Shown here: one piece after another, positions 5,993-22,895 of the stretch
Numbering within the stretch: the stretch's first letter is position 1
Layout: every line of letters begins with the position of its first letter
NCBI GenBank assembly: GCA_964596735.1
Contig: CAZQVF010000001.1
Span: 9,924 to 73,923 of the forward strand
Origin: an uncultured Gammaproteobacteria bacterium
Lineage (GTDB): Bacteria; Patescibacteriota; Patescibacteriia; UBA2591; UBA6264
Direction: 5' to 3'
DNA: 64,000 nucleotides
The notes under the pieces: generated by a model
What the model saw: the letters and a program-made list of their open reading frames with translations, nothing else
Database searches by the model: none
Told to the model about the DNA's origin: nothing
Made by a program: the position numbers and the translations under genes

Positions 5993-7021
5993 ATGAAATA
6001 CATTAAAGAAAAAATAATTAAAAATAAAAAATATTATTATTTTAATTACACCCTTTCTCAGGTTTCAAACAAAAAAAAGATTTATTTGTCTAAATATATT
6101 GGTACGGAAATTCCCAACAATATTAAGGAGTTAATGTTAGGTTTTTTTCAAGAGAATGTTGCCCAAGTTTCATTAGAACGAATTAGTCGGTTAATTAGAA
6201 ATTATTTTCCTCAAAACACCATTGCGTATATTGAAAGAAATCGTTTTTGGTATACGTGTTTATTTCATAAATTTTTTAATAAAGATTTTAAATTATTTAG
6301 AACCCTATTTTATATATTGTTTGTTTTAAATTCTAATCGGGCTGAAGGTTCAAGGGTTGTCAGGCCCGATATAGAAAAGATTTTGGAAAAGAGAAGGGTT
6401 AAACCAAAGACTAATATAGACAAAGAAATTATTAATTCTGTTGAAGCTATAAATTTTGCTTTTTCAAAAAAAATGCAATGGAATATCAAGTCAGTTAAAA
6501 CAATTCATTATAAACTTTTTTATAACATAGCTCCAAATGCTGCGGGGCAATATAAAAAAGAACCAAATATTGCAGGGGACAATATTAGGGGGGAACTTGT
6601 TTCAACAACATTCCCTGAAGATGTCTCTAAAGAAATGAGAAATTTAATAAACTGGCTTAATCAAGAAAGAAGAAAGAAAACATACCCTCCTATTTTAGCC
6701 CTGGAATTTCACTGGCGTTTTGAAGCAATTCATCCTTTTCAGGACGGGAATGGAAGGGTGGGTAGAATTTTACTAAACGCTTTACTGGTAGAAAATAATT
6801 TTATGCCAGTAATATTTTTTAGCAAAAATCATCAATCTTATTGTTCAGCAATTTCTAAAGCTCGAACTGGTTACAGTAAAAAATTAGCTCAGCATTTTGT
6901 TGAACATTTAAAAAAGACAAAGATAAATATAGAAAAATACAGAAAGGAAAAGGTAATTAAAATAGCATCTCCTCAGACTGAAAAATGGGAAAAGGCCAGA
7001 GTAAATATAAAATTATATTAG
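5993..7021 (+). CDS. fic: Fic-family protein (AMPylase / adenylyltransferase), class II with an intrinsic inhibitory helix
   Basis: The Fic motif HPFQDGNGRVGR (HxFx[DE]GNGRxxR) is at about residue 237. An upstream inhibitory motif S-N-R-A-E-G ([ST]xxxE[GN]) is in LNSNRAEGSRV. Confidence 0.85.
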   Translation: MKYIKEKIIKNKKYYYFNYTLSQVSNKKKIYLSKYIGTEIPNNIKELMLGFFQENVAQVSLERISRLIRNYFPQNTIAYIERNRFWYTCLFHKFFNKDFKLFRTLFYILFVLNSNRAEGSRVVRPDIEKILEKRRVKPKTNIDKEIINSVEAINFAFSKKMQWNIKSVKTIHYKLFYNIAPNAAGQYKKEPNIAGDNIRGELVSTTFPEDVSKEMRNLINWLNQERRKKTYPPILALEFHWRFEAIHPFQDGNGRVGRILLNALLVENNFMPVIFFSKNHQSYCSAISKARTGYSKKLAQHFVEHLKKTKINIEKYRKEKVIKIASPQTEKWEKARVNIKLY

Positions 7022-8118: not shown

Positions 8119-8946
8119 ATGTTTAATCTATTTTTTGATTTTTTACATAATTTTGAGCCCCAACCAATTATTTTACGGTTGGGGTTTTTAAATATTTATT
8201 GGTACAGTTGTCTAATTGTTATTGCTCTTTTATTGGGTTTAATTCTTGTTTTTAAATTAAGTTCAAGATTTAAAATTGAAAAACAATTATTAGAAAACTT
8301 GTTTTTTTATTTAATTATTAGTGGTTTTTTAGGCGCTCGTCTTTACCATGTTTTAAGTGAATTTCCCTATTATCTAAGGCATCCTTGGCAGGTATTTGCG
8401 GTCTGGCAAGGGGGGCTGGGTATTTACGGAGCAGTTGTTGTTGGCAGCCTGGTTTTGCTTTGGTTTTGTAGAAAATACAAATTAAATTTTTTATCTTTAG
8501 CTGACTTATTAGCCCCTAGCTTAATATTGGGACAAGCCATTGGCCGTTGGGGAAATTATTTTAATCAAGAAGTCTTTGGAAAGCCAACCAGTCTGCCCTG
8601 GGGGATTCCTATTGAAACAATGGCCAGGCCTTTAGAATTTTTATCAAGTCAATATTTTCACCCTACTTTTTTATACGAATCAATTTGGAATTTTTTAGTA
8701 TTTTTAATTCTAATTTTTGTTTTAATAAAGATTTTTCCTAAGCCAGGCCGAATTTTTTCTCTTTATTTAATTCTTTATTCTTTTGGCAGGTTCTTTTTAG
8801 AGTTTTTAAGAATTGATTCTCAGCCAGTTTTATTTGATTTGCGTTTAGCTCAGATTATTTCTTTGTTGGTTTTTATTTTTGGTTTTTATTTATTAATAAA
8901 AAAGAGCCCCTGGAAAGACTCATCCGAATCTGAAAAAGATATTTAA
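8119..8946 (+). CDS. lgt: Prolipoprotein diacylglyceryl transferase
   Basis: A polytopic 275-aa protein with Lgt signatures (GARLYHVL, WQGGLGIYGAVVG, GRWGNYFNQE). Confidence 0.88.
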   Translation: MFNLFFDFLHNFEPQPIILRLGFLNIYWYSCLIVIALLLGLILVFKLSSRFKIEKQLLENLFFYLIISGFLGARLYHVLSEFPYYLRHPWQVFAVWQGGLGIYGAVVVGSLVLLWFCRKYKLNFLSLADLLAPSLILGQAIGRWGNYFNQEVFGKPTSLPWGIPIETMARPLEFLSSQYFHPTFLYESIWNFLVFLILIFVLIKIFPKPGRIFSLYLILYSFGRFFLEFLRIDSQPVLFDLRLAQIISLLVFIFGFYLLIKKSPWKDSSESEKDI

Positions 8947-9596
8947 CCCTGGGCCAAAACAATGGCCCAGATTTTTTTTGCCCCGGCTTGATACAGGGCT
9001 TTAGCGGCTTGTTCTAATGTGGCCCCAGTAGTTAAAATATCATCAATTAAAATAATATTTGGGACAATTTTTCCCTGAACCTTAAAAACGTTTTGCACAT
9101 TTAATTTTCTTTGTTCTCGACTAAGATTAGTTTGAGAAGGAGTATCCTTTACTTTTTTCAAGGATTTTTTTAAAGGCCAATTAAAAACAGTGGCTAATTC
9201 CTGAGCAATTAGATCGGCTTGATTAAAGCCTCGTTTGGCCAGTTTCTGCCTAAACAGAGGAATGGGAACTAAAATAAACCTGTTTTTAGATAAATAATTT
9301 AAAGCCAAAGGAGATTGTTTTAAGCATTTTATAAAAAGAGGGGAAAGGCTTTTTAAAACATTGAGATTATAAGGAGAATATTTAAAAGATTTGATGGCTT
9401 TCTTTAATAAAGGTTGTTGATAGTCAAAAATAGTAACAATCCTTTCAAGAGAATAAAGATTAGCCTCCCATTTGTTTAAGATAATAACTTTATCTAAACA
9501 TTTTTGGCAAACAATCTCGCCAATCTGACGGCAGCCAAGACATTCAATCGGAAACAGGGTGTTTAAAATTAAGTTCTTTAATTTATTTATCCACAT
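8943..9596 (-). CDS. comF: ComF-family competence protein (phosphoribosyltransferase domain)
   Basis: An N-terminal Zn-finger (CLGCRQ...CQKCLDK) and a C-terminal PRTase PRPP-binding loop (ILIDDILTTGATL). It is divergent from the pil operon. Confidence 0.75.
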   Translation of the reverse strand: MWINKLKNLILNTLFPIECLGCRQIGEIVCQKCLDKVIILNKWEANLYSLERIVTIFDYQQPLLKKAIKSFKYSPYNLNVLKSLSPLFIKCLKQSPLALNYLSKNRFILVPIPLFRQKLAKRGFNQADLIAQELATVFNWPLKKSLKKVKDTPSQTNLSREQRKLNVQNVFKVQGKIVPNIILIDDILTTGATLEQAAKALYQAGAKKIWAIVLAQG

Positions 9597-9601
9597 ACTT
9601 G

Positions 9602-9643
9602 TTGAAAATAGTATTATATTGTATAATATTATTGTATAATATT
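9602..9643 (+). promoter_or_regulatory. comF/pilM divergent promoter region with a perfect 13-bp tandem duplication carrying two TATAAT boxes
   Basis: TTGAAA lies at 9602-9607. ATTGTATAATATT is repeated exactly in tandem at 9618-9630 and 9631-9643, each copy containing TGTATAAT. Confidence 0.4.
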
Positions 9644-9677
9644 GGTATTAATAAAACAAATTAAGTATCAACTTAAT

Positions 9678-10727
9678 ATGGGTTTTTTTGGTTTTAAACA
9701 AAAAAAAAGTTTTCTAGGCATTGATATTGGGTCAACTAGTATTAAGTTAGTTGAGCTTAGTAAAGAAAAAGGAACTCCCACTTTAGTTACTTATGGTTAT
9801 GCAGAAAGGGCGATTAGTGATATTGTTAAGGGTGATGCTCAGAAAATTTTAAATAAAGTTGCTGCTTTATTAAAAAGGCTATATACAGATGCAGGAATTA
9901 CTAGTTTTCAGGCAGTAACAGCGTTGCCAAATTACTCTGTTTTTAATTCAGTGATTACCCTTCCAATGATGAATAAAAAAGAACTGGATTCCGCTGTTCG
10001 TTGGGAAGCTAAAAAGTTTGTTCCCATGCCCATTAATGACGTGGTCTTGGATTGGCGCATTATTGATACCATTGAAGTTGATAAAAGAAGAAAAAACTAT
10101 CGTATTCTTTTAACTGCAGCGGCCAAGAATTTGGTCAGAAGATATGTTGAAATTTTCAAAAAAGCTGATCTACAGCTCTTATCTTTAGAAACTGAATCAT
10201 TTGCTTTGTCGAGGGCCTTAATTGGCAAAAGTCAGGCAACGACTATGATTATTGATACTAGCGCCGTAACCACTGACATTCTTATTATTGAAAAAGGCGT
10301 GCCCGCTCTTAATCGTAGTATTGATGTTGGGGGGATTACTATTTCTCGGGCTATTGCTAATAGTTTAAATATTGATTTTAAAAGAGCAGAACAGTTTAAA
10401 AGAGATATTGGCATGGGTGGTTCTTCTAAAATTCCCAAGGTGATCGAGGGGATTCTTAAACCAGTAATTGATGAAATGCGTTATTCATTAAAACTTTATC
10501 AAGATCAGTCAGGCAAGGTAGTAGAACAGGTAATTTTTTCTGGCGGATCTGCTTATTTGCCTAATCTGGTTGAATATTTTTCTAAAATTTTAAATATACG
10601 TGTTATTATTGGCAATCCCTGGGCCAGAATTGCTTATCCAGAAGAATTAAAGCCGGCTTTGGAAGAGGTTGCTCCTCGTTTTGCTGTGGCCGTTGGATTA
10701 GCCTTAAGGGAAATTATAAGAACCTGA
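9678..10727 (+). CDS. pilM: Type IV pilus assembly protein PilM (actin-like ATPase fold)
   Basis: The ATG at 9678 gives MGFFGFKQKKSFLGIDIGSTSIKLVEL, the canonical PilM N-terminus. The ORF-track start at 9642 is a TTG. An FtsA/actin-like fold runs throughout. Confidence 0.85.
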   Translation: MGFFGFKQKKSFLGIDIGSTSIKLVELSKEKGTPTLVTYGYAERAISDIVKGDAQKILNKVAALLKRLYTDAGITSFQAVTALPNYSVFNSVITLPMMNKKELDSAVRWEAKKFVPMPINDVVLDWRIIDTIEVDKRRKNYRILLTAAAKNLVRRYVEIFKKADLQLLSLETESFALSRALIGKSQATTMIIDTSAVTTDILIIEKGVPALNRSIDVGGITISRAIANSLNIDFKRAEQFKRDIGMGGSSKIPKVIEGILKPVIDEMRYSLKLYQDQSGKVVEQVIFSGGSAYLPNLVEYFSKILNIRVIIGNPWARIAYPEELKPALEEVAPRFAVAVGLALREIIRT

Positions 10728-10797
10728 TTTTATCAGAATCTTGATTTTCAATTAAGTAAAACTTGAAATTAAAATCTTTAAATTTTTAAATAAATAT

Positions 10798-11601
10798 ATG
10801 GCCATTGTTCCCAATGTTTCTAGACAACCGGGGGATAGAAATGTCAATTCTCTTGCCCCTGAAAACAAGCCGTTAAAAAAGAGCTGGCTAGGTTCGATTT
10901 TTAAAAAAGAAAAAAAATCTTTGGCAGAGCCAAAAGAGCAAGCACCCTTGAGTGAAGAAGAGATTAGAAAACTGTCAGAGAAGAATTTAGAAAAAAAAGA
11001 AAAAAAAGGGTCTGTTGAAAAGTCGTTATTAAGCGACGAAGCTCAGACAGGCTCTTTAGATATTAGTTTAATGCCGGAAAAGGCAGTGATTATCCCCCGT
11101 ATTATTCGTTCCCGGTTATTAATTCTTATTGCCGCTTTAGCCGTTATTGTGCCCGCCTTTGTTTTAGTTTGGCTATACACTGATTATCATTTTGAAAAAA
11201 TGAGAAACGAGGTGATAGCGATGGAAAGAGAAATGCAGTTTTTAAAAGCGCAAAGCGGGTCACTTTTAAAGGTAAGAGATGAGATAATGAATCTGGAGAC
11301 TCAGGCAGCCCGGGCAGAGGAAATTTTAAATGATCATATTTATTGGACTAAATTTTTTAGTTTATTAGAGGCTTATACAATTCCAAATCTTTATTTTAGT
11401 GATTTCACAGCTGATACTAGTGGAATTATTCGACTAGATGCAATGGGTCGAGATTTAATTGATATTGCTCAGCAGATCATTGTCTTTACTCAAGCAGAAG
11501 ATTTTGCCAAAGAGGTAACCGCCTCTAATATTGCTCTGACCCCGGAAGGGATAAGGGCTTCTTTTAGTTTGCTTTTAAATGATAATGTTTTTAAAAAATA
11601 A
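10798..11601 (+). CDS. pilN: PilN-like bitopic pilus assembly protein
   Basis: A charged N-terminal region, a single TM (LLILIAALAVIVPAFVLVWLY), then coiled-coil. It sits between pilM and the pilO-like gene. The assignment rests on architecture and position only. Confidence 0.5.
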   Translation: MAIVPNVSRQPGDRNVNSLAPENKPLKKSWLGSIFKKEKKSLAEPKEQAPLSEEEIRKLSEKNLEKKEKKGSVEKSLLSDEAQTGSLDISLMPEKAVIIPRIIRSRLLILIAALAVIVPAFVLVWLYTDYHFEKMRNEVIAMEREMQFLKAQSGSLLKVRDEIMNLETQAARAEEILNDHIYWTKFFSLLEAYTIPNLYFSDFTADTSGIIRLDAMGRDLIDIAQQIIVFTQAEDFAKEVTASNIALTPEGIRASFSLLLNDNVFKK

Positions 11602-11631
11602 GAACCTGCTTTGCAGAACCTTGAAATTAAA
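11598..11631 (+). repeat. 34-bp intergenic element ATAAGAACCTGCTTTGCAGAACCTTGAAATTAAA, copy 2
   Basis: Identical to 59002-59035. It begins within the stop codon of the upstream gene and lies 20 nt upstream of the pilO-like start. TTGAAA plus a 17-nt spacer plus TATAGC gives a promoter-like arrangement. Confidence 0.75.
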
Positions 11632-11651
11632 AAACATTTTAATTATAGCAT

Positions 11652-12206
11652 ATGGCTCGGGTAAGAAGAGAACAAGTTAAAATAAGAAAATATCAAAATT
11701 TTGTTGTCAGACTTTATTGGTTGGTGATTATTTTACTTTTTCTAGCCGCAGTTTGCGTTGAGTATTTTTTAATTATTAAACCAAGACTAGAACAAACATA
11801 TAATGGTGGCCCATTGGATGTGGAAAGTCGACAAGTTATTTTAGAGGAACAAAGAATCTATTATGAAGCATTAAAAGCATTAGAAAAAGAAGCTAATGAG
11901 ATTAACCAAGCAGAATTAGAAAAAGTAAATTATGTTATTGCAGAGAAGATGAATATACCAGATATTTTAAATCAAATTTTTCTTTTAAATAAGCAAGAAG
12001 GGATGGAGCCACTTGGTTTTGATTTTGCTTTTGATCAAGGCGTTTTACAAATAAATCTACACCTTAAGACAAGTAATTATCAAGATATTAAGAAATATTT
12101 AGATGAAATCGAAAAAAATATTCGCATCATGGACATCACTAGCATATCAATTAAGGGAATAGGAACAGATCTTTCTTTAACTGTTCAAAGTTATTATCTA
12201 GAATAA
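11652..12206 (+). CDS. pilO: PilO-like bitopic pilus assembly protein
   Basis: An N-terminal TM (LYWLVIILLFLAAVCVEYFLII) plus coiled coil plus a C-terminal domain, in operon position after pilN. The call is architecture-based. Confidence 0.45.
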   Translation: MARVRREQVKIRKYQNFVVRLYWLVIILLFLAAVCVEYFLIIKPRLEQTYNGGPLDVESRQVILEEQRIYYEALKALEKEANEINQAELEKVNYVIAEKMNIPDILNQIFLLNKQEGMEPLGFDFAFDQGVLQINLHLKTSNYQDIKKYLDEIEKNIRIMDITSISIKGIGTDLSLTVQSYYLE

Positions 12207-12209
12207 GAC

Positions 12210-12524
12210 ATGGCTAAAATAAAAAGACAACACATTTTTCTTGTAATTTTTATCCTTTTAATTGGATTAATGATTTTTATTATTTCCAAGAATACAGAGA
12301 TACTAGGATTAAAAGGAGGTTCAGATTCAGGCCCTGGCATTGTTAAACCTGACTACTTAATGAAACCCATCCCTAAGATAAATAAGATTAAAACAGTTGT
12401 TGACAATCCAAAATTTAAAGAAATGAAATACGTTAAGGAATTTTTTGAACAAGTAGAAGTTGAAGAAAAAGGTCGGGCCAACCCTTTTATGCCTTATAGA
12501 CCAGACGAAATTCTTGAAGAATAA
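12210..12524 (+). CDS. Small bitopic membrane protein in the pil operon (possible PilP-like component)
   Basis: A 104-aa protein with one N-terminal TM, lying 4 nt after the pilO-like gene and before pilB. Confidence 0.35.
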   Translation: MAKIKRQHIFLVIFILLIGLMIFIISKNTEILGLKGGSDSGPGIVKPDYLMKPIPKINKIKTVVDNPKFKEMKYVKEFFEQVEVEEKGRANPFMPYRPDEILEE

Positions 12525-12541
12525 ATTCATTTAATTAAATT

Positions 12542-14290
12542 ATGATACAGTCTGAGAATAAAATTACCCGTTTTTTAGTTGAACACGGCAAGATTTCTCG
12601 AGCACAATATAAGGAATTGTTAGCCGAAGCTAGAGAAGTCCGCTTGCCTGCGGATAAACTTTTAGAGACAAAGAAAATTTTACCCGAAGAAGACATTGCT
12701 TGGGCTAAAGGCCAATTATATACAGTGCCAGTAATTGACTTATATGGTTTAATTGTTGACCGCAAGGTTCTTAGCTTAGTGCCTAAGGATGTGGCTGAGA
12801 ATTATCAAGTGGCCGCCTTTGCCAAAGAAGGAAATATTTTAAAAGTGGCCATGCTTAATCCAGGTGATTTTAAGGGAAGAGAGGCAATAGATTTTCTTGC
12901 CCGACGAAAAAAACTCAAGCCAGAATTTTATACAACCGCTAGTTCTGCTCTAAAAAATATTTTAGCTCAATATGGGGGCTTATCAGTAGAAGTTAGTGAA
13001 GCAGTTGGTGCAGAAGAATCCCGGTTTGCCCCCATCACCCCAGAGAAAAAATTAACAATCGGAGAAATGGATTTGGAAAAAATGGGTCAGGCAGCTCCAA
13101 TTTCTAAATTAGTCGGCTCTATCTTAAAATATGCGGTTGATAACAATGCTTCTGATGTTCATATTGAGCCCTATACAGACAAAACAAGGGTGCGTTATCG
13201 GGTAGATGGTATTTTAAGAGAAACAGCAATGTTGCCGGGACATCTTCATCCAGCCATTGTTTCTCGAGTTAAAGTGATGGCCAATCTTAAGCTTGACGAG
13301 ACTCGGGTTCCACAGGATGGGCGTATCAGAGTGATTGCCGCCAAAAGAAAGATAGATTTACGTGTTTCTGTATTTCCTTTATTTGACAAAGAAAAAGTAG
13401 TAATGAGGGTTCTTGACCCAGCTCGTCGCGTCTTTGATTTAAAGGATTTAGGTTTTTGGGGAAAAGGTTTGGAGATAATCAAAAAGAATTTAGCTCGAGC
13501 TCATGGTTTGGTTCTAATTACCGGGCCAACTGGTTGTGGTAAAACAACTACTATTTTCGCCTCTTTAAAAATACTTAATCAAGTGAGTGTTAATGTGGTT
13601 ACTTTAGAAGACCCTATTGAATATTTTTTAGCCGGGACTAATCAATCTCAGGTGCGCCCTAAAATTGGTTATTCTTTTGCTTCTGGCTTGCGTTCAGTTG
13701 TTCGTCAAGACCCAGACATTATCATGGTTGGTGAGATTCGTGATAATGAGACAGCCGAATTAGCCACTCACGCTGCCTTAACTGGACACGTTGTTCTTTC
13801 TACTCTTCATACTAATGATGCCTTTGGAGCAGTGCCTCGTTTAATTGATATGGACATAGAACCATTTTTAATTGCCTCTTCATTAAATTTAGTTGTTGCC
13901 CAAAGACTAGTCCGAAAGCTTTGTCCTCATTGTGCCGAACAAGCCGAGTTTTCTCCAGCAGTGGAAAAAACAATAGAACAGGCATTAAAAGACATCAGAG
14001 ATCTTGATTTAGATAAATATCGAGATAAAAAAACAAATCATTTAAAGTTTTATAGAGGCAAGGGCTGTCCTCGATGTAATAATGAAGGTTATCAAGGACG
14101 AGTAGCTATTTCAGAGGCACTAGAGATTACTGAACAAATGAAGGAAATTATTACTAGTGGCTGTAAAATTGATGAGGTTAGGAGGGAGTTTGCTAGACAA
14201 GGGATGTTAGAAATAATCAAAGATGGATACCTTAAGGTTTTACGAGGCGAAACAACAATTGAAGAGGTTTTAAGAGCGGCCAGTGAATAA
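12542..14290 (+). CDS. pilB: Type IV pilus extension ATPase PilB (GspE family)
   Basis: It has Walker A GPTGCGKTTT, Asp box LEDPIEY, Walker B DPDIIMVGEIRD, His box LTGHVVLSTLHTND and the tetracysteine Zn site CPHC...CPRC. An N-terminal GSPII_E_N-like domain is present. All catalytic motifs are intact. Confidence 0.92.
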   Translation: MIQSENKITRFLVEHGKISRAQYKELLAEAREVRLPADKLLETKKILPEEDIAWAKGQLYTVPVIDLYGLIVDRKVLSLVPKDVAENYQVAAFAKEGNILKVAMLNPGDFKGREAIDFLARRKKLKPEFYTTASSALKNILAQYGGLSVEVSEAVGAEESRFAPITPEKKLTIGEMDLEKMGQAAPISKLVGSILKYAVDNNASDVHIEPYTDKTRVRYRVDGILRETAMLPGHLHPAIVSRVKVMANLKLDETRVPQDGRIRVIAAKRKIDLRVSVFPLFDKEKVVMRVLDPARRVFDLKDLGFWGKGLEIIKKNLARAHGLVLITGPTGCGKTTTIFASLKILNQVSVNVVTLEDPIEYFLAGTNQSQVRPKIGYSFASGLRSVVRQDPDIIMVGEIRDNETAELATHAALTGHVVLSTLHTNDAFGAVPRLIDMDIEPFLIASSLNLVVAQRLVRKLCPHCAEQAEFSPAVEKTIEQALKDIRDLDLDKYRDKKTNHLKFYRGKGCPRCNNEGYQGRVAISEALEITEQMKEIITSGCKIDEVRREFARQGMLEIIKDGYLKVLRGETTIEEVLRAASE

Positions 14291-14307
14291 ATTATTAAAT
14301 TATATTT

Positions 14308-15381
14308 ATGAGCACACAAACAGAAGTTATTTTAAATCGTATTTGCCGGGGAGCGGCAGAAAGAAAGGCTTCAGAGATTTATTTATTACCAGCTCAATCT
14401 CCATTTATCAGAGTTGACGGCAAAATGAAAACATTAACCGGAGAGGGAATTGTTTCTTTGTCTTTTATTAACGATTTAATCCCAATTTTTTTAAATTCAG
14501 AAGAACAAGATGTTTTAAAAAAGGAAAGGCAAATCGAAACAATTAAACCTATCGGTAAAATTGGGAGCTCGCAGATAAATGTTTATTATCAAAAAAATGA
14601 ATTAGCTTGTCGTATAAAATTATTGGCCCAAGAAATTATTGCTTTGGAAAAGCTGGGATTACCAGAGATGGTTACTAATTTTACTAATTTATTAAGGGGA
14701 ATTGTTTTTATTACTGGGCCAAGAGACTCGGGTCGATCAACCCTATTAACCTCTTTATTGGATCATATTAATAAGACTCAGGTTAAATTTATTTCCACCT
14801 TAGAAAAGCCGATTAAAGCCACCTTAAGGGGGGTTAAAAGTGTGGTTGAGCAAAGAGAGGTTGGCAAAGATGTTCCTTCATTTTTAGATGGCCTGCGCTA
14901 TATTAGAAAAAGAAACGCAGAAATAGTTATGATTTCACAGATTAAACGAGTTGAAGAAGTAAAAGAAATTTTTGCTATTGCTGAAGCCGGAAGCCTAGTC
15001 TTTACAATTATGGATACCGCCTCAGCCGTTAAAACAATTAGAAGAATTTTACATTTTTTCCCAGCCGAAGAACAAGAAAGCGTCAGATACTTTTTAAGTG
15101 AAAACTTGGGCGGCATTGTTGCTTCTCGTTTAGTGCCCCGAATTGGCGGAGGACGCATTCGGGCCTTAGAGGTTTTGCCTGGAACCCAGGCAGTTAGATC
15201 TATTATTGCCAATGGACGCCTTCATCAGTTAACCGGAGTGATTCAAGCCAGTGAAGATCAGACTTCGATTTCTTTAGATCAATATTTAGCTGATTTGGTT
15301 ACTTCAGGTAAGGTAATGACTGAAGATGCAGTTAAGTATAGTGTTGATGAAGAGCTTTTCCACTCTTTATTAAGAAGATAA
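14308..15381 (+). CDS. PilT-family (retraction-ATPase-like) protein with degenerate catalytic motifs; putative pseudo-ATPase
   Basis: It is colinear with PilT (GIVFITGPRDSGRSTLL vs LVTGPTGSGKSTTL; ISTLEKPIKAT vs LTIEDPIEF; GGGRIRALEVLPGT vs GGGRVAAHEIMIGT; FFPAEEQ vs VFPAEEK). Walker A Lys is replaced by Arg, and the Gly becomes Asp. The Asp-box D is K. Walker B GE is replaced (IVMISQIK vs IILVGEMRD). The His-box His residues are lost (SLVFTIMDT vs HLVFGTLHT). Confidence 0.85.
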   Translation: MSTQTEVILNRICRGAAERKASEIYLLPAQSPFIRVDGKMKTLTGEGIVSLSFINDLIPIFLNSEEQDVLKKERQIETIKPIGKIGSSQINVYYQKNELACRIKLLAQEIIALEKLGLPEMVTNFTNLLRGIVFITGPRDSGRSTLLTSLLDHINKTQVKFISTLEKPIKATLRGVKSVVEQREVGKDVPSFLDGLRYIRKRNAEIVMISQIKRVEEVKEIFAIAEAGSLVFTIMDTASAVKTIRRILHFFPAEEQESVRYFLSENLGGIVASRLVPRIGGGRIRALEVLPGTQAVRSIIANGRLHQLTGVIQASEDQTSISLDQYLADLVTSGKVMTEDAVKYSVDEELFHSLLRR

Positions 15382-15409
15382 GAATGCAAAATCTTGTCAT
15401 ATTTAAAAG

Positions 15410-16621
15410 ATGTTATTTGAATACAAGGCAAAAAATTTAAAAGGAGAAACAGTTGAAGGAACTCTGGAAGCAATTAATCAGGAAGCAGCGGTCAATGTTT
15501 TGGCCGGCCGCAAAATGATTATTATTTCTTTAAAAGAATCTGGGGCGCTCCCTATTTGGCGTCGGCCTTTACGTATCGCTTTTTTGGAAAGAGTTAATCC
15601 AAAAGACATGGTTTTTATGTCTCGTCAGCTTTCCGTTATGGTTTTGGCCGGATTGCCATTAGTTAAGGCTCTGGAGGTTTTGGCCCGCCAGACAAGCAAG
15701 GCCTTTTTAAAGCAGGTGATTAATATTATCGCCGAAGACGTACGGGGAGGAACAAGATTTTCTACGGCCTTGGCTAAGTATCCTAAAATTTTTGATGATT
15801 TTTATGTTAATATGGTCCGAGCTGGAGAAACAGCTGGGAAGCTTGATGAGGTTTTAAATTATTTAGCTAATGAACAAGAAAAGAGTTATGATTTAATGAG
15901 CAAGATAAGGGGAGCAATGATTTATCCGGTTTTTGTTATTGTTGGGGTTGTTGGCGTAATGATTTTAATGATGGTTTTTGTTATTCCTCAGTTAACTGGT
16001 ATTTTAAAAGAATCAGGCGTGGCCTTGCCATTGCCAACCCTTGTTTTAATTAAAACTAGTGAGATTTTAAAGCAATATTTTGTTCTTGTTATGCTTGGGG
16101 CCATTGGGGCTGGTTTTGGCATAAGAGCTTTTTTCAAAAGCAAATCAGGCAAAGCCGCCTTAGACAGTCTTCTTTTAGGGCTTCCAGTTTTTGGTAATTT
16201 ATTTCAACAAGTCTATCTGGTTCGTTTCTCCCGCAGTCTCTCAACCTTAATTATTGGCGGCATTCCTTTAACTTCAGCTTTAAGAATAGTAGCCGGAGTA
16301 GTTAGTAATAATGTTTATAAAAATTTAATCCTTGATGCTGTTATTGATGTAGAAGAGGGTCGTTCAATAAGTAGTGCTTTTATGGATGAACCTCAGGTGC
16401 CTAAGATGCTCCCTCATTTAATGGCGATTGGAGAAGAAACTGGTCGGCTTGATGAGGTTTTACAAAAGATTGCTGATTTTTATTCTCGAGAAGTAGAAAA
16501 TATTTTAGCAAAATTAGTTACTCTACTTGAACCAATTATTATCATCTTCTTGGGTGTAGTTGTCGGCGGTATGGTTGCCTCTATTATCTTGCCTATGTAT
16601 AAATTAGCTTCTGCCTTTTAA
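15410..16621 (+). CDS. pilC: Type IV pilus inner-membrane platform protein PilC (GspF family)
   Basis: A 403-aa protein with two GspF repeats and three TM segments. It begins MLFEYKAKNLKGETVEG, typical for PilC. Confidence 0.88.
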   Translation: MLFEYKAKNLKGETVEGTLEAINQEAAVNVLAGRKMIIISLKESGALPIWRRPLRIAFLERVNPKDMVFMSRQLSVMVLAGLPLVKALEVLARQTSKAFLKQVINIIAEDVRGGTRFSTALAKYPKIFDDFYVNMVRAGETAGKLDEVLNYLANEQEKSYDLMSKIRGAMIYPVFVIVGVVGVMILMMVFVIPQLTGILKESGVALPLPTLVLIKTSEILKQYFVLVMLGAIGAGFGIRAFFKSKSGKAALDSLLLGLPVFGNLFQQVYLVRFSRSLSTLIIGGIPLTSALRIVAGVVSNNVYKNLILDAVIDVEEGRSISSAFMDEPQVPKMLPHLMAIGEETGRLDEVLQKIADFYSREVENILAKLVTLLEPIIIIFLGVVVGGMVASIILPMYKLASAF

Positions 16622-16693
16622 GGGCTCGTAGCTCAATGGTAGAGCGCTTGATTCACATTCAAGAGGTTGATGGTTCGATCCCATCTGGGCCCA
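16622..16693 (+). tRNA. tRNA-Val (anticodon CAC)
   Basis: Manual fold: acceptor GGGCUCG/UGGGCCC (two G-U pairs), D-arm GCUC/GAGC, anticodon stem CUUGA/UCAAG with loop UUCACAU, T-arm GAUGG-UUCGAUC-CCAUC, discriminator A. No CCA is encoded. It starts 1 nt after the pilC stop. Confidence 0.85.
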
Positions 16694-16705
16694 TTTTCTA
16701 AATAT

Positions 16706-17542
16706 ATGCCAGAATTACCAGAAGTTGAAACAATTAAAAATCAGTTAAAAGTCAAGATTAAATCAAAAACAATAAAAAAAATCGAGGTTAAACTGTCTAA
16801 GATGGTCAGAGATACCTCGGTGGTTTTTTTTAAGAAAATGGTGGTGGGAATAAAAATTAAAAACATTGAACGAAGAGCCAAACTTTTAATTATTCACTTG
16901 AATAATGGTTATTCATTGGTTATTCATTTAAAATTATCTGGTCAATTAGTTTATTATCCTAGTTTAGAACAAAAAAAAGAAAAACATACTCATTTAATTT
17001 ATTATTTTTCTGACAACAGTTGTCTCTGTCACAATGATCTAAGGCAATTTGGTTATGTTAAATTAATTAAAACAACAGATCTAGAAAAGTTTTTTCAACA
17101 ACAAGGCTTAGGCCCCGAGCCCCTGGATAAAAGTTTTACTTTAAAAAAATTTAAAGAATTATTAAACAAAAGACCTAATTCAAAGATTAAACCTCTTTTA
17201 ATAAACCAATCTTTTATTGCTGGCATTGGTAATATTTATGCCCAGGAAGCTTGCTGGGGTGCCCAGATTTTACCCATTAGATTAGTTAAGTCTTTAACAG
17301 AAAAAGAAATAAAAAAGCTACATCACTGTTTAATTAAAATTTTAAAACTAGCGATTAAAAGCAAGGGAACAACAGCGGCTGACGCTCATTATATTGATGC
17401 TCAGGGAAGAGAAGGGAGTTATAAAAGCAAATTAAAGGTTTATCAACGACAGAATAAAAAATGTTTTCGTTGTTCACAGAAGATTAAAAGAATAAAATTA
17501 GGCGGGAGAGGAACCAGTTATTGTCCGGGTTGTCAAAAATAA
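16706..17542 (+). CDS. mutM: Formamidopyrimidine-DNA glycosylase (Fpg/MutM)
   Basis: The true start is the ATG at 16706, giving MPELPEVETI (catalytic Pro2/Glu3). The ORF-track start at 16667 would overlap the tRNA. There is a C-terminal zinc finger CFRC...CPGCQK. Confidence 0.88.
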   Translation: MPELPEVETIKNQLKVKIKSKTIKKIEVKLSKMVRDTSVVFFKKMVVGIKIKNIERRAKLLIIHLNNGYSLVIHLKLSGQLVYYPSLEQKKEKHTHLIYYFSDNSCLCHNDLRQFGYVKLIKTTDLEKFFQQQGLGPEPLDKSFTLKKFKELLNKRPNSKIKPLLINQSFIAGIGNIYAQEACWGAQILPIRLVKSLTEKEIKKLHHCLIKILKLAIKSKGTTAADAHYIDAQGREGSYKSKLKVYQRQNKKCFRCSQKIKRIKLGGRGTSYCPGCQK

Positions 17543-18601: not shown

Positions 18602-18874
18602 ATGATTACTCAAAAACAAAAAACACTTATTAATTTTAAAAAAGCGCAAAGCCTAATGGTAAAAATTATTAAGATGACAGAAGACAATGAATATTGTATT
18701 GATATTATGCAGCAAAACTTGGCCGTGATAGGACTTTTAAAATCAGCCCATCAGATGTTAATGGAGGGACATTTAAATACTTGTTTTAAAAGAGCAATGG
18801 GAACAAAGAATGAGAAACGAAAAAAAGAAATGATTCAAGAGATTTTAAAAGTTACTAAATTATCTAATAAATAA
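18602..18874 (+). CDS. csoR: CsoR/RcnR-family (DUF156) metal-sensing transcriptional repressor
   Basis: A 90-aa protein. LMVKIIKMTEDNEYCIDIMQQNLAVIGLLKSAHQMLMEGHLNTCF matches the CsoR W-X-Y-Z fingerprint (Cys...His...Cys). It is the first gene of a copper operon ending in copA. Confidence 0.8.
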   Translation: MITQKQKTLINFKKAQSLMVKIIKMTEDNEYCIDIMQQNLAVIGLLKSAHQMLMEGHLNTCFKRAMGTKNEKRKKEMIQEILKVTKLSNK

Positions 18875-18877
18875 ATT

Positions 18878-19663
18878 ATGTTTAAAAAATATTTACCATT
18901 TATTATTATTGGTCTTGTTATAGTGATTGGTGGAGGAATAACATTTGGCCAAGGAGGGGTTGAAAAGAGTCAGGAGAATAACACTGAAGCTCAGTGTGAA
19001 ATCAATGAGATGGTTTTTTATTATCTTGATTCTTGTAGCTGGTGCCAAAAAGTTAAAAGCGAAAAAACTATTTCAAAATTAGAATCCTTGGGTGTGAGAG
19101 TCGAACAGATTAGAGCAAACGTTGGTCCGGTTCGTCATCAATTTCAAGGAGTGCCAACTTTTGTTATCAATGAAAATGTATATAGCGGTTACAAAACATT
19201 TGAGGAATTAAAAGAATTGTTAAAATGTTCAGAAGATAACCAAGTCTTGTCTCAACTTGAATCTCCCAAGTTTGAATTTATTGGAGAGAACGGAGAAAAT
19301 GTTTCTTTAATAAATAGACAGATAAGTTTAACGGCTAATATTCTTGATGATAATTTGGCTCATTATTACAACACAGAACTTCCCAGTGGAAAAACAGTCT
19401 ACTTTTTTGTGGTTAAAGACAAAAACGGTATTTATCGAGCGGCTGCCAATGCCTGCCAGGTTTGTTTTGATTCAAGGATGGGCTTTCGTCAACAGGGTGA
19501 TTTTATGGTCTGTAACACCTGTGGAAATAAATATCCTTTGGAAAAGATTGCCACAGAAAAAGGCGGATGTAATCCAGGCCCAATTAACCCAGATCTAAAA
19601 GTTAAAGATGGAAAGATAACCATTAAACAGGCAGAACTGGAGGAAATCGCCGAACTCTTCTAA
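18878..19663 (+). CDS. Membrane-anchored thioredoxin/glutaredoxin-fold protein with a C-terminal double-CxxC (zinc-ribbon-like) domain
   Basis: An N-terminal TM, then CSWC ... GVPTFVIN (a Trx-fold cis-Pro loop), then CQVCFDS...CNTCGNKYP...GGCNPGP. The gene is 4 nt downstream of csoR. Confidence 0.55.
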   Translation: MFKKYLPFIIIGLVIVIGGGITFGQGGVEKSQENNTEAQCEINEMVFYYLDSCSWCQKVKSEKTISKLESLGVRVEQIRANVGPVRHQFQGVPTFVINENVYSGYKTFEELKELLKCSEDNQVLSQLESPKFEFIGENGENVSLINRQISLTANILDDNLAHYYNTELPSGKTVYFFVVKDKNGIYRAAANACQVCFDSRMGFRQQGDFMVCNTCGNKYPLEKIATEKGGCNPGPINPDLKVKDGKITIKQAELEEIAELF

Positions 19664-19667
19664 ATAT

Positions 19668-20048
19668 ATGAAAAAACTTGTTATAATTTTTCTTATACTT
19701 TTAATCAGCGGCTTTATTGGATATTTAATTTTTAATATTCAAAATCCAAGCTTTGAAAAATTAAGTCTAATAGAGAAGTATGAAAAAGTTATTAGTCAAA
19801 GAAACCAGGCGATTGCTCAGGCAGTAAAGGCAGGAGTATATAAGTGTTGTATAAATCCCCCCTGCACCATGTGTTATTCAGAAGCTAATCAATGGAATAA
19901 CCATAAGGCAGGTACCTGCGCTTGTGATGATTTGATTGCTCAAGGGAAAGAACCATGTCCTCAATGCAAAAGAGGTTTGATTAGAGATACAGGTTCTTCT
20001 TGTGAAATTATTAGTGGAACCTGTGAACCAGAAATTAACAACCAATAA
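19668..20048 (+). CDS. Small membrane-anchored cysteine-rich protein (12 Cys in about 90 residues), putative metal-binding
   Basis: An N-terminal TM followed by YKCCINPPCTMCYSEANQWNNHKAGTCACDDLIAQGKEPCPQCKRG...SSCEIISGTCEP. It lies inside the CsoR-CopA operon. Confidence 0.5.
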   Translation: MKKLVIIFLILLISGFIGYLIFNIQNPSFEKLSLIEKYEKVISQRNQAIAQAVKAGVYKCCINPPCTMCYSEANQWNNHKAGTCACDDLIAQGKEPCPQCKRGLIRDTGSSCEIISGTCEPEINNQ

Positions 20049-20056
20049 ATAACAAT

Positions 20057-20392
20057 ATGAAATTAATAACTAAAATATTTTTAATGTCTTTCTTTGTTTT
20101 TTATCCCGGATTATTATTAGCTCATGGCGGGACTGAAGTTGCCCACCACCATATGATGGGAGCAATGTTTGGTTCAGGTGGTTATGGTTTTTTTGGCATG
20201 GGGTGGATAATGATAATATTCTGGTTGGTGGTTATAACGGGAGTGATTGGGTTGATTAAGTGGGTTTTTGCTGAAAAAAGACCTGAAATTAAAGGTGAAT
20301 CAGCCCTGGATATTTTAAAAGAACGTTATGCCAAAGGAGAGATAAATGAAGACGAATATAAGCAGAAGAAAAAAGATTTAATTAATAGTTAA
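20057..20392 (+). CDS. His/Met-rich membrane protein with a C-terminal SHOCT domain, putative Cu-binding
   Basis: A signal/TM, then HGGTEVAHHHMMGAMFGSGG (a His/Met cluster), a second TM, and a C-terminal LKERYAKGEINEDEYKQKKKDL (SHOCT-like). Confidence 0.5.
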   Translation: MKLITKIFLMSFFVFYPGLLLAHGGTEVAHHHMMGAMFGSGGYGFFGMGWIMIIFWLVVITGVIGLIKWVFAEKRPEIKGESALDILKERYAKGEINEDEYKQKKKDLINS

Positions 20393-20416
20393 ACATAAAA
20401 TTAAAAAAGTTAAATT

Positions 20417-21142
20417 ATGTCAAATAAAGAAAATTATCAAAAAAATAAGGGATCAAAAAATGATTTTATTTTAGGTATAACCACAGCCATTGCTGTCATT
20501 GCCATTATTGGTTTTTTTATTGTCTTGTCCCTGTATTTAAATCAAGACAAGAAAGTATTGGCAGAAGCATTACCAGCTGCTCCCAGTAAACCAGAAGTTG
20601 AAAAACAGGTCCTGCCAGCTAAGTTAGAAGTTCAATTAAGCAGAGATGATCATTTTAGAGGTGACCCCAATGCCTTAGTGACTGTTGTGGAATTTTCTGA
20701 TTTTCAATGTCCTTATTGTTCAAGTTTTCATCAGACCATGTTAAAAATAACCCAAGATTTTCCAAAAGAGGTAAAATGGGTTTATAAACATTTTCCCCTA
20801 GATTCTATTCATCCGTTTGCCAGAAAAGCAGCTGAGGCTTCAGAATGCGCGGCTGATCAAAACAAATTTTGGGAATACACTGACGAGTTATTTGTTAAGC
20901 AGAGAGAAATCAGCCCCGCCCTTTTTACAGAAATAGCCGGGACAACAGGGTTAGACAGGAATCAATTTAATAGTTGTTTGGAGTCGGGTAAATATGCTTC
21001 AAGGGTAGAGGCAGATTATCAACAGGGCATAAAAGCAGGGGTGCGGGGAACACCAGGTAGTTTTGTGAATGGACAATCCTTAGCCGGGGCTGTTCCTTAT
21101 AATGAAATGAAATCTATGATTAATGAATTACTAAATGAGTAA
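20417..21142 (+). CDS. DsbA/BdbD-family thiol:disulfide oxidoreductase (membrane-anchored)
   Basis: An N-terminal TM, FSDFQCPYCSSFH (CPYC active site), and GVRGTPGSFVNGQ (cis-Pro loop). Confidence 0.8.
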   Translation: MSNKENYQKNKGSKNDFILGITTAIAVIAIIGFFIVLSLYLNQDKKVLAEALPAAPSKPEVEKQVLPAKLEVQLSRDDHFRGDPNALVTVVEFSDFQCPYCSSFHQTMLKITQDFPKEVKWVYKHFPLDSIHPFARKAAEASECAADQNKFWEYTDELFVKQREISPALFTEIAGTTGLDRNQFNSCLESGKYASRVEADYQQGIKAGVRGTPGSFVNGQSLAGAVPYNEMKSMINELLNE

Positions 21143-21386
21143 AAAAATAAGGACAGTTTTTTTATCTATCCTCTCTTTTTTATCAGGAGGCTTAGGGATT
21201 GTTGGTCTTTCTGGCTGGTGTTGTACTTTAACCGGAGCCGCTATTCTGTCTTTATTGGGATTGGCTTCATTTAGTGTTTTTCTCGTGTCTTATAATAAGT
21301 TATTGTTACTTATCTCAATAATTTTTTTAATCCTGGCGATCATGTCCTTTGTTAAACATAAAAAAGCAAAAAGTTGCTTAAAATAA
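21135..21386 (+). CDS. Small two-TM membrane protein with a vicinal Cys pair (GWCC)
   Basis: An 83-aa protein in the operon, overlapping the dsbA-like stop by 8 nt. It has two hydrophobic helices and a CC pair within a Gly-rich turn. Confidence 0.4.
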   Translation: MSKKIRTVFLSILSFLSGGLGIVGLSGWCCTLTGAAILSLLGLASFSVFLVSYNKLLLLISIIFLILAIMSFVKHKKAKSCLK

Positions 21387-21389
21387 ACT

Positions 21390-22883
21390 ATGCTCAAAAA
21401 AATAGAAATTCAAATTAAAGGAATTCATTGCAAAAGCTGTAAAACCTTAATTGAAACAGAAGTAGATGTTTTACCTGGAGTTAAAGATGTTGATGTTAAT
21501 CATCAGACTGGGGAATGCCAGATAATTTTTGACGATCAAAAGGTTTCTCAAAGTAAGATTTTCAAGACCATTGAAAAATTAAATTATCAGGTTAAAGATT
21601 CATCAACAAAAGAAAAGAAAAAACAAAAACAAGTTTCTAAAAAATTTATCATCGCCGGAATTTTATTAGCGGTTTTTGTCCTTGGTTATTTTCTTATTAA
21701 ACACCTGGGCCTTTTAGAAACCCTTTCTAGACTTAATGACCAGAAAATAAGTTATTGGTTAATCTTTCTAATCGGTGTTTTAGTCAGCTTTCATTGCATA
21801 GGAATGTGCGGGGGGTTAGTGGTCGCTTATACAAGCCGGCACCAGATTAAAGAGGAAAAGAAGACTAATCTTTCTTTGCCTCATTTACAGTATAATGTAG
21901 GGAGAATGATTTCTTATACAGTGGTTGGCGGGATTTTAGGTGGTTTTGGTTCTTTTTTTGGTATAAACCCGACCTTTACCGGATCTATTATTTTAGTAGC
22001 TGGTGTTTTTATGGTTTTAATGGGACTATCTTTAATGACTAATTTTAAATGGCTAGAGAAGATTAAATTAAGAACCCCATTTTTTATTGCCAAATTTCTT
22101 TATAAACAACGTCATACGCGCAAACCAAAGGGGCCATTTATTATTGGTTTGCTCAATGGTTTTATGCCCTGTGGGCCCTTGCAAGCAATGCAGATTTATG
22201 CCCTGGCTTCAGGCAGCATTACCCAGGGGGCCTTATCAATGGGCGTTTATGGCTTAGGCACGGTTCCTTTAATGTTTGGTTTTGGTAGTTTTATTTCCTT
22301 GATTAGCCAGGATAAAATTAAACAAGTAATGAAGTTTTCTGGCTTAGTGGTTATTGTTTTAGGTCTAATAATGTTTAATCGAGGGTTGGTAAACTTTGGT
22401 TATGGTTTTCGTAGTTTTATTCCGCGAGAAGCAACCAGTCAGACAGAGTATTTAGTTACTGGTGATGTTGAAGAATATCAGGTAGCAAGAATGGATTTAA
22501 CTTATCGCGGTTATTCTCCTAATGTTATTTTTGTTAAAAAAGATATTCCGGTACGATGGATTATTAATGTTAAACAGATGTCTGGCTGTACAGATGAAAT
22601 TATCATGCCTGAGCATAACATTAAAAAGCCTCTGGAATATGGTGAAAATATTATTGAATTTGTGCCTAAAAAATTGGGGAATCTTAAATTTAGTTGTTGG
22701 ATGCAAATGGTTTGGGGAAAGTTTGTGGTTGTTGAAAAAGATAAACAGCCAACTTCACAAGATTTATATAAAGAGTCCCTTGACTTGCCTCAGGGCGGCA
22801 CTTGTGATGGCGGAGGAACATGTGGCGGTACTTGCGGGGTGCCTACCTGCGGATGCAGTAGCCGTATCAGAGGGTCTCGATAA
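21390..22883 (+). CDS. HMA (heavy-metal-associated) domain fused to a DsbD/CcdA- or TauE-like polytopic permease, a cupredoxin-like domain and a Gly/Cys-rich tail
   Basis: The N-terminus IKGIHCKSCKTLIE is an HMA fold with CxxC. The membrane core carries the paired motifs FHCIGMCGG and FMPCGPLQAM. A beta-rich C-domain (SGCTDEIIMPEH...FSCWMQMVWGKFVV) follows. The tail is GGTCDGGGTCGGTCGVPTCGCSS. Confidence 0.65.
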   Translation: MLKKIEIQIKGIHCKSCKTLIETEVDVLPGVKDVDVNHQTGECQIIFDDQKVSQSKIFKTIEKLNYQVKDSSTKEKKKQKQVSKKFIIAGILLAVFVLGYFLIKHLGLLETLSRLNDQKISYWLIFLIGVLVSFHCIGMCGGLVVAYTSRHQIKEEKKTNLSLPHLQYNVGRMISYTVVGGILGGFGSFFGINPTFTGSIILVAGVFMVLMGLSLMTNFKWLEKIKLRTPFFIAKFLYKQRHTRKPKGPFIIGLLNGFMPCGPLQAMQIYALASGSITQGALSMGVYGLGTVPLMFGFGSFISLISQDKIKQVMKFSGLVVIVLGLIMFNRGLVNFGYGFRSFIPREATSQTEYLVTGDVEEYQVARMDLTYRGYSPNVIFVKKDIPVRWIINVKQMSGCTDEIIMPEHNIKKPLEYGENIIEFVPKKLGNLKFSCWMQMVWGKFVVVEKDKQPTSQDLYKESLDLPQGGTCDGGGTCGGTCGVPTCGCSSRIRGSR

Positions 22884-22895
22884 TTAATTATAAAT

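Follow-up and report, generated by a model that had tools for sequence, protein, structure and literature searches.

A central role in host attachment and DNA uptake is attributed to type IV pili in the ultrasmall bacteria of the candidate phyla radiation (CPR). Structures of canonical PilT, the retraction ATPase of these machines, are available (3JVV, 2EWV, 6OJX). Residue roles, including those of the open-interface R294 and of T220, a proposed proton relay, have been described in P. aeruginosa, in which either E204A or H229A alone abolishes PilT function (PMC6858323). The present analysis concerns a pilT gene found at 14308-15381, on the + strand, of a 64,000-nucleotide stretch of DNA (contig CAZQVF010000001.1 of assembly GCA_964596735.1); the whole stretch is hereafter called the window, and the product of the gene the window PilT. 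The window PilT is similar to canonical PilT in length, two-domain fold, end-to-end alignment and gene location between pilB and pilC, and retains the equivalents of the QREVG, GGGR and closed-interface residues. Unlike canonical PilT, it lacks K136, D160, E163, G203, E204, T220, H222, H229 and the N-domain arginines.

Non-hydrolysing or atypical P-loop proteins are known as structural or regulatory partners of type IV filament motors, as FlaH in the archaellum and TadZ/CpaE in Tad pili. FlaH is KaiC/RecA-like and TadZ/CpaE are ParA/MinD-like; none derives from the motor or is found in its place. Closer to the case described here are the engineered V. cholerae and A. baylyi PilTs carrying K136A or E204A, which do not hydrolyse ATP, as is predicted for the window PilT. 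These are laboratory point mutants dependent on PilU, whereas the loss in the window PilT is natural, multi-site, ancient and fixed clade-wide, and no PilU-like partner is seen nearby. Canonical PilTs encoded by CPR bacteria (Saccharibacteria TM7x; loci L005 and L011) are about 29-34% identical to the window PilT. Their genes feature the same order, pilM...pilB-(response regulator)-pilT-pilC, often with comF upstream, and the proteins keep the motifs GP(T/V)G(H/S/V)GKST, EDPIE, VGEMR(D/N) and LHT. Intact Walker boxes have been reported for TM7x PilT (PMC11623550). Papers on CPR genomes read a PilT match as evidence of retraction or twitching and leave the motifs uncommented (for example PMC5220378, PMC6744442, PMC7143001). 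No description of a degenerate, pseudo- or inactive PilT, in CPR bacteria or elsewhere, was found in the full-text literature searched, most subscription journals being outside it, and a pseudo-ATPase form of PilT, fixed in nature and widespread, is apparently new to the searchable literature.

As judged from translation, all the residues needed for Mg-ATP hydrolysis and for its coupling across subunits are gone from the window PilT. The gene and its altered motifs are listed below; substituted residues are numbered as in P. aeruginosa PilT.

14308-15381, + strand: pilT, 357 aa, full-length PilT fold, all catalytic residues gone
14566-14619, + strand: N-domain stretch, with P. aeruginosa R80, R82 and R97 replaced by S, Q and K
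14716-14742, + strand: remodelled P-loop GPRDSGRST (aa 137-145; canonical GPTGSGKST)
14797-14817, + strand: degenerate Asp box TLEKPIK (aa 164-170; canonical TIEDPIE), D160 and E163 both replaced by K
14920-14949, + strand: degenerate Walker B EIVMISQIKR (aa 205-214; canonical DIILVGEMRD)
14989-15018, + strand: degenerate His box GSLVFTIMDT (aa 228-237; canonical GHLVFGTLHT)
15190-15213, + strand: AIRNLIRE-like motif AVRSIIAN, with A, V/I, R and I kept and N291, R294 and E295 changed

In the P-loop, K136 is replaced by arginine (R143, codon CGA) and T132-G133 by R-D, so that an Arg-Asp pair lies inside the loop. In Walker B, G203 is replaced by S, the catalytic E204 by Q and R206-D207 by K-R. 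The His box has S229 in place of H222 and D236 in place of H229, and the preceding T220 is changed to A. In a first-pass annotation, made from the sequence alone, the same losses had been read (a Walker A without the catalytic Lys, EKP for EDP, a Walker B without the Gly-Glu pair, IMDT for LHT), and translation bears out each of them: R143, TLEKPIK, VMISQ, and the replacement of both His-box histidines.

Residues were compared in 62 canonical PilTs and in 56 members of the degenerate clade described below. Outside the catalytic motifs too, losses affect residues with 94-100% conservation in canonical PilTs (R80, R82, R97, R194, T220 and the final Arg in AIRNLIRE). The three N-domain arginines, present in canonical PilTs at frequencies of 0.94, 0.98 and 1.00, are replaced in the clade by N/S, Q and K, and the equivalent of R294 is the Ala in AVRSIIAN. 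The equivalents of the closed-interface and packing residues R239, E219, D31 and L268 are kept, as are the pocket positions G137, G142 and S/T144-145 of the window protein.

The window PilT is a PilT derivative by fold, length, alignment and gene position. The end-to-end alignment to PilT previously claimed is found with TIGR01420 (PilT/PilU), which matches residues 9-347 over positions 2-340 of 343 of the model (256.6 bits), with A. aeolicus PilT 2EWV (E = 3e-61, residues 6-354) and with P. aeruginosa PilT 3JVU/3JVV (E = 6e-52). Pfam T2SSE (PF00437) is matched by residues 123-279 with 59.1 bits, above the gathering threshold of 24.9. Despite the end-to-end alignment, the score of 256.6 bits falls short of the curated TIGR01420 cutoff of 319.1. 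As it scores below the PilT/PilU cutoff and lacks every catalytic feature, this protein should not, on sequence grounds, be labelled a retraction ATPase. A structure prediction, proposed in the first-pass annotation as a check, was obtained with AlphaFold2 from a 93-sequence alignment, and returned the two-domain PilT fold, PAS-like at the N-terminus and RecA-like at the C-terminus (pLDDT 94.1, pTM 0.90). Only PilT and PilU structures occupy the top Foldseek ranks, the best match being the ATP-bound G. metallireducens PilT4 (6OJX_A, TM 0.93, rmsd 1.7 A). The predicted shape of the P-loop is kept (strand 131-136, loop, helix 143-157, pLDDT about 95). PilB and GspE traits are lacking: the protein is 357 aa long against about 560-600, has no MshEN match and no CxxC pairs, and scores 57 bits with the PilB model against a cutoff of 676.

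It is extremely improbable that the gene is an artefact of sequencing or frameshift errors, or a dying pseudogene, as nothing besides the missing motifs speaks for it; this candidate explanation was refuted. The ORF is intact and full length, and an identical 357-aa protein is encoded by 18 contigs, independently assembled (JGI and ENA assemblies, several samples), the longest of 83.8 kb. To restore K, D, G and H, two substitutions per codon are needed at R143 (CGA), K167 (AAG), S210 (TCA) and S229 (AGC). A corrected frame restoring the motifs had been indicated in the first-pass annotation as the finding that would go against its claim; no G....GK[ST] or hhh.GE motif occurs in any other reading frame of 14201-15500. 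The altered motifs are moreover shared by dozens of protein clusters down to about 40% identity. dN/dS ratios were calculated by the Nei-Gojobori method against two relatives (loci L008 and L010, encoding 92% and 86% identical proteins). Values for pilT are 0.071-0.087, to be compared in the same genome pairs with 0.085 for pilB, 0.095-0.162 for pilC and 0.098-0.135 for fpg, and purifying selection on pilT is thus as strong as on pilB and pilC. Among relatives, the identity of the window PilT keeps pace with that of PilB and PilC (61-92% vs 62-90%), and lags only at greater depth (42-46% vs 59-63% for PilB). No variation is seen at R139, D140, S141, G142 and R143 among 18 clade members of 41-86% identity.

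Degenerate PilTs are widespread. Two protein searches were carried out, one word-indexed, covering 5.8 billion proteins, and one exhaustive, with phmmer, covering 1.84 billion representatives. About 60 clusters found by the former, down to about 40% identity, share the signature of the window PilT (GPRDSGRST, E[KQ]P, VMxS[Q/E/R...], MDT). These are mostly metagenomic, and those with a name derive from Parcubacteria or Patescibacteria metagenome-assembled genomes (MAGs). A wider set features a second signature (GP[FY]GSGR[ST]T, E[KRQ]PIE, S-E/x, [RK]...MNT). The scoring of motif conservation, which had been suggested as a check, was run on five catalytic residues in 194 single-domain homologues pooled from both searches and drawn by similarity to the window PilT. 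None of the five is kept in the window PilT and in 85 of these sequences, one is kept in 32, two in 11, and four or five in 62. The distribution is bimodal, and about 128 of the 194 are degenerate, almost all of them belonging to one clade; in the window PilT the losses extend to the N-domain arginines and T220. In a midpoint-rooted neighbour-joining tree, built after masking the motif columns, one clade includes 117 sequences, none of them canonical, and the other all the 62 canonical sequences plus 15 non-canonical ones. The residue at the catalytic-Glu position varies in the former clade (E 40, Q 32, K 10, D 9, S 6, R 6 and others), a pattern expected once a position is out of use.

GTDB, with one genome per species, was scanned with an alignment of 18 clade members. 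The best 80 matches correspond to 41 degenerate and 39 canonical genes, and an identity of 40% or more to the window PilT is reached by only eight species representatives among them. Degenerate genes are found in MAGs titled Patescibacteria group, Parcubacteria, Microgenomatus, Kerfeld-, Buchanan-, Uhr-, Veblen- and Komeilibacteria, canonical ones in Saccharibacteria, Moranii-, Berkel-, Yanofsky- and Doudnabacteria and in non-CPR phyla. By these sequence comparisons the degeneracy is family-wide, ancient, strongly constrained, and spread over many Patescibacteria lineages. The pocket exists in two clade-specific versions, one with R139/D140 accompanied by K170 and D236, the other with F/Y139 accompanied by R/K229 and N236. 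Pairs of pocket residues co-occur strongly (D140 with R139/K170, F/Y139 with R229). Compensation by salt bridges was considered as independent evidence and rejected, because the correlations are confounded by phylogeny, the pairs being clade signatures. Several MAG records (TPA_asm) titled "uncultured Gammaproteobacteria bacterium" (L015, L018, L025, L028, L039-L041, L061, L065, L069, L077, L090) carry the CPR-type pilM-pilB-pilT-pilC genes with degenerate pilT; these titles look like placeholders or wrong taxonomy.

In the window, pilT is part of a closely spaced set of + strand genes spanning 9642-16621.

8943-9596, - strand: comF-type phosphoribosyltransferase with zinc ribbon (family match), divergent from pilM, synteny kept in relatives
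9642-10727, + strand: pilM, actin-like (PilM_2, 162 bits)
10798-12524, + strand: three small membrane ORFs (267, 184 and 104 aa) at the pilN/pilO position, no significant Pfam match
12542-14290, + strand: pilB, extension ATPase (T2SSE 411 bits plus MshEN), with four motifs and CPHC...CPRC
15410-16621, + strand: pilC, platform protein with two T2SSF domains
16622-16693, + strand: tRNA gene, end of the pil block, its first base directly following the pilC stop codon

Only 17 nt separate pilB from pilT. As had been stated, the adjacent PilB has all four motifs, GPTGCGKTT (residue 328), TLEDPIEY (354), DIIMVGEIRD (392) and GHVVLSTLHTND (415), and the cysteine pairs of the Zn site, CPHC (461) and CPRC (509). 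In locus L001, a 190-aa ORF syntenic to the small ORFs at the pilN/pilO position has a weak PilO match. Neither credible prepilin-type signals (two regex scans) nor PilD were found in the 64-kb window. Because no prepilin-type signal was found, the block is a machinery sub-operon rather than a complete pilus locus, and its earlier description as an otherwise intact operon is overstated, since pilin and PilD genes were not detected.

Loci at 92, 86, 69-61, 63, 46 and 42% identity all have the order comF(-)-pilM-x-x-x-pilB-pilT-pilC with a degenerate pilT, and often share an upstream ligA-gatC-gatA-x-lgt block. Canonical CPR pilT genes occupy the same slot, in L005 as pilB-response regulator-pilT-pilC-pilin...pilD, and in L011 as pilB-pilT-pilC-pilin. 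In the GTDB sample, 32 of the 41 degenerate genes lie between pilB and pilC, and 5 more are on truncated contigs. The slot is occupied in 27 of the 39 loci with canonical genes, and in all the 24 with CPR-type titles or loci; 8 canonical genes outside it belong to Acidobacteriota, Actinomycetota, Omnitrophota and Chloroflexia. The gene is therefore a positional ortholog of PilT, and not an extra paralog as proposed in the first-pass annotation, which had rightly placed a dead PilT exactly where the retraction motor is expected. The adjacency of comF is real and syntenically conserved; it has no specific bearing on the dead PilT, because comF is equally present beside operons with canonical pilT. 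In one exceptional sub-clade (P0062; L026, L029, L030, L102) a degenerate pilT (GSFGSGKTT / EKP / SELST / NLEA) is away from pilB and pilC, and forms with a pilM homologue an overlapping two-gene module located between pth and mfd-dprA-topA (L102, 10001-12143). A gene encoding a receiver-only response regulator of about 125-130 aa is found between pilB and pilT (L005 9612-10004, L006 9613-9990, L007 9289-9666); such loci are either CPR ones with canonical pilT or members of the wider degenerate clade, and the window and its close relatives lack the gene.

No other T2SSE-family gene is present in the 64-kb window, as tblastn with four canonical PilTs detected pilB and pilT only. Similarly, no second PilT-like gene was found in any of about 100 related loci of about 20 kb (10 kb on either side of each match), no CPR locus has two such genes, and no canonical PilT among the sampled CPR genomes is an orphan, all being located in the pilB-pilC slot. 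A closed CPR genome has been reported to have the whole set of type IV pilus genes, a lone PilT among them, in one place, the motif state of this PilT not being given (PMC7143001). These data suggest that the active PilT has been replaced, rather than that a degenerate one has been added. Two degenerate loci seemingly present in one genome, Candidatus Parcubacteria bacterium 4484_255 (P0020, P0023), were rejected as a case of duplication. They share one syntenic locus (L098; L100/L101: ligA-gatCA-x-lgt-comF-pilM..pilC), and this MAG is hence a mixture of strains.

The claim that a catalytically dead PilT sits in the retraction slot holds, and is stronger than first supposed, the losses being family-wide and dN/dS low. 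Because this PilT is tightly conserved, type IV pilus machines of CPR bacteria seem to carry a non-motor protein in the place of the motor. In the reading that we favour, with a probability of about 0.45, the window PilT is a PilT ortholog unable to hydrolyse ATP, maintained as a non-catalytic component of the pilus machine. It would still assemble into a PilT-like ring, and this ring, competing with PilB for the PilC/PilM base, would dock there and so end or gate pilus extension. The pilus would then be disassembled or held with no ATP-driven motor dedicated to retraction. The invariant pocket (R139-D140...R143, K167/K170, D236) would fix the subunit interface in one state, with no cycling. 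It may be conjectured that each clade-specific version of the pocket replaces the bound nucleotide by its own side chains. Docking is plausible, by analogy with PilT K136A and given that the equivalents of R239, E219, D31 and L268 are kept. The ATPase-dead K136A protein still self-associates, binds PilC and has a role in vivo (PMC6821130).

Several points weigh against this reading. Dead PilT is functional in V. cholerae only together with PilU (PMC6821130). An active PilT or PilU may be encoded elsewhere in the genome, as the search for a second PilT covered the window, which is a minor share of a genome, and the 10-kb flanks of related matches. The clade has lost the equivalent of R294, and mutation of R294 reduced the interaction with PilC in P. 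aeruginosa. Proportions of degenerate homologues are not prevalences, because the samples were collected by similarity to the query, and the masked neighbour-joining tree has no support values.

A bolder version of the same reading, in which a ring-shaped pseudo-ATPase has wholly replaced the retraction motor in a large and old CPR branch, with no ATP-driven retraction left, is doubtful. Equally tentative are two of its parts, namely that pili are there under the control of a non-catalytic clutch, whose pocket mimics one fixed nucleotide state in two clade-specific versions, and that the branch includes the lineages labelled Parcubacteria, Microgenomates, Kerfeld-, Buchanan-, Uhr-, Veblen- and Komeilibacteria. 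Were replacement of the motor true, this would be a distinct way to run a type IV filament machine, and "PilT present" in a CPR genome would be no sign of twitching or forceful retraction. If many lineages hold a dead PilT only, inferences of retraction and twitching need to be revisited, and retraction of CPR pili must be either motor-independent, or driven by PilB, or absent. The breadth of, and the constraint on, the dead PilT are what would surprise specialists of pili. The window PilT would be a natural, evolutionarily optimised counterpart of the ATPase-dead alleles used to study the coupling of PilT, PilU and PilC, and could show which functions of PilT (docking, displacement of PilB, interface state) do not depend on hydrolysis. 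It would also add a bacterial secretion ATPase to the growing list of conserved pseudoenzymes.

Different roles may be imagined for the protein. Those put forward in the first-pass annotation, namely capping of PilB or PilC, heterohexamers and pili locked in an extended state, are hypotheses. It is unlikely, albeit worth consideration, that it binds ATP without hydrolysing it and works as a lock or sensor, its ring being held closed in a CCCCCC-like form and bound to PilC, either to stabilise extended pili or to report the ATP level. The predicted geometry of the P-loop is intact, G137, G142 and S/T144-145 are kept, and the invariance of residues 139-143 argues for a pocket that has kept some function. 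RecA and Rad51 with a Lys-to-Arg mutation in Walker A bind ATP and barely hydrolyse it, which is in line with such a role. So is the fact that ATP favours the closed CCCCCC form of PilT, required for PilC binding (PMC6858323), and that V. cholerae PilT E204A acts as an ATP-locked, hyperpiliated allele (PMC6821130). The best structural match of the model is the ATP-bound PilT4; the pose of an AlphaFold2 monomer is however no evidence for a nucleotide state. The charge reversal of the Mg-coordinating acids (D160 and E163 to K), the loss of the phosphate-contacting N-domain arginines and the Asp inside the P-loop argue against Mg-ATP binding. Somewhat less likely still is that the protein is an adaptor that docks and recruits or licenses a separate PilU-like motor encoded elsewhere, as in Vibrio and Acinetobacter, where PilU retracts only with PilT present, even when this is PilT K136A (PMC6821130, PMC9815625). 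The missing second PilT/PilU-family gene in the 64-kb window and in all the 20-kb loci, the lack of orphans among canonical PilTs of sampled CPR genomes, the closed genome with one PilT and all the pilus genes at one locus (PMC7143001) and the very small size of the carrier genomes all speak against it.

A working ATPase relying on non-canonical catalytic residues is very unlikely. In its favour, the fold and the architecture of the P-loop are kept and the gene is strongly constrained, but the five catalytic positions have all gone together, the arginine fingers are missing as well, and no acid is conserved at or beside the catalytic-Glu position, which may be Q, E, K, D, S, R, G or L in the clade. 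Single E204A or H229A mutations are by themselves sufficient to kill PilT (PMC6858323). Just as little credit can be given to the hypothesis that the protein forms mixed rings with PilB or caps the PilB hexamer, modulating directly the extension motor. The two genes are adjacent, 17 nt apart, and the existence of tandem PilT-PilT proteins, some with one degenerate module, makes mixed rings feasible in the family. Yet PilT and PilU, much closer to each other, form separate homohexamers (PMC6821130), and the window PilT matches the PilB model weakly (57 bits) and lacks the PilB N-terminal domains. Tandem PilT-PilT fusions of 700-1000 aa were noticed among P0121, P0123, P0125-P0131, P0144, P0163 and P0171, and mostly consist of two canonical modules. 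In P0171 a GANGSGRTT module precedes a canonical one, in P0163 a canonical module is followed by a GPRNSGKST/EYP one. Long, high-scoring matches such as P0121 were rejected as relatives of the dead clade, being either PilT-PilT fusions or PilTs extended by further N-terminal domains.

Other features of the window deserve mention. The fpg (MutM) ORF at 16667-17542 (+ strand) is listed with a TTG start that lies within the tRNA gene at 16622-16693; its true start is probably an ATG near 16706 (MPELPEVE...). A gene encoding a Fic-domain protein (5993-7021, + strand) interrupts the otherwise conserved ligA-gatC-gatA-x-lgt-comF block; the relative L001 has its Fic gene, next to a helix-turn-helix gene, downstream of pilC instead. 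The + strand region 30622-37560 encodes a 2312-aa protein made of CarboxypepD_reg, SdrD-B and SpaA-type repeats, and is followed by ORFs of 1245 aa (39463-43200) and 470 aa (43334-44746), both on the + strand and with no Pfam match. The three may be surface or adhesion proteins. The + strand region 18602-26206, as read from translations only, contains a row of small Cys-rich or thioredoxin-like ORFs and then a 497-aa membrane protein, the N-terminus of which starts with a metal-binding-like CxxC and the tail of which is rich in Cys and Gly. Next comes an ORF resembling a heavy-metal P-type ATPase (23954-26206, + strand), similarly recognized from the translation alone.

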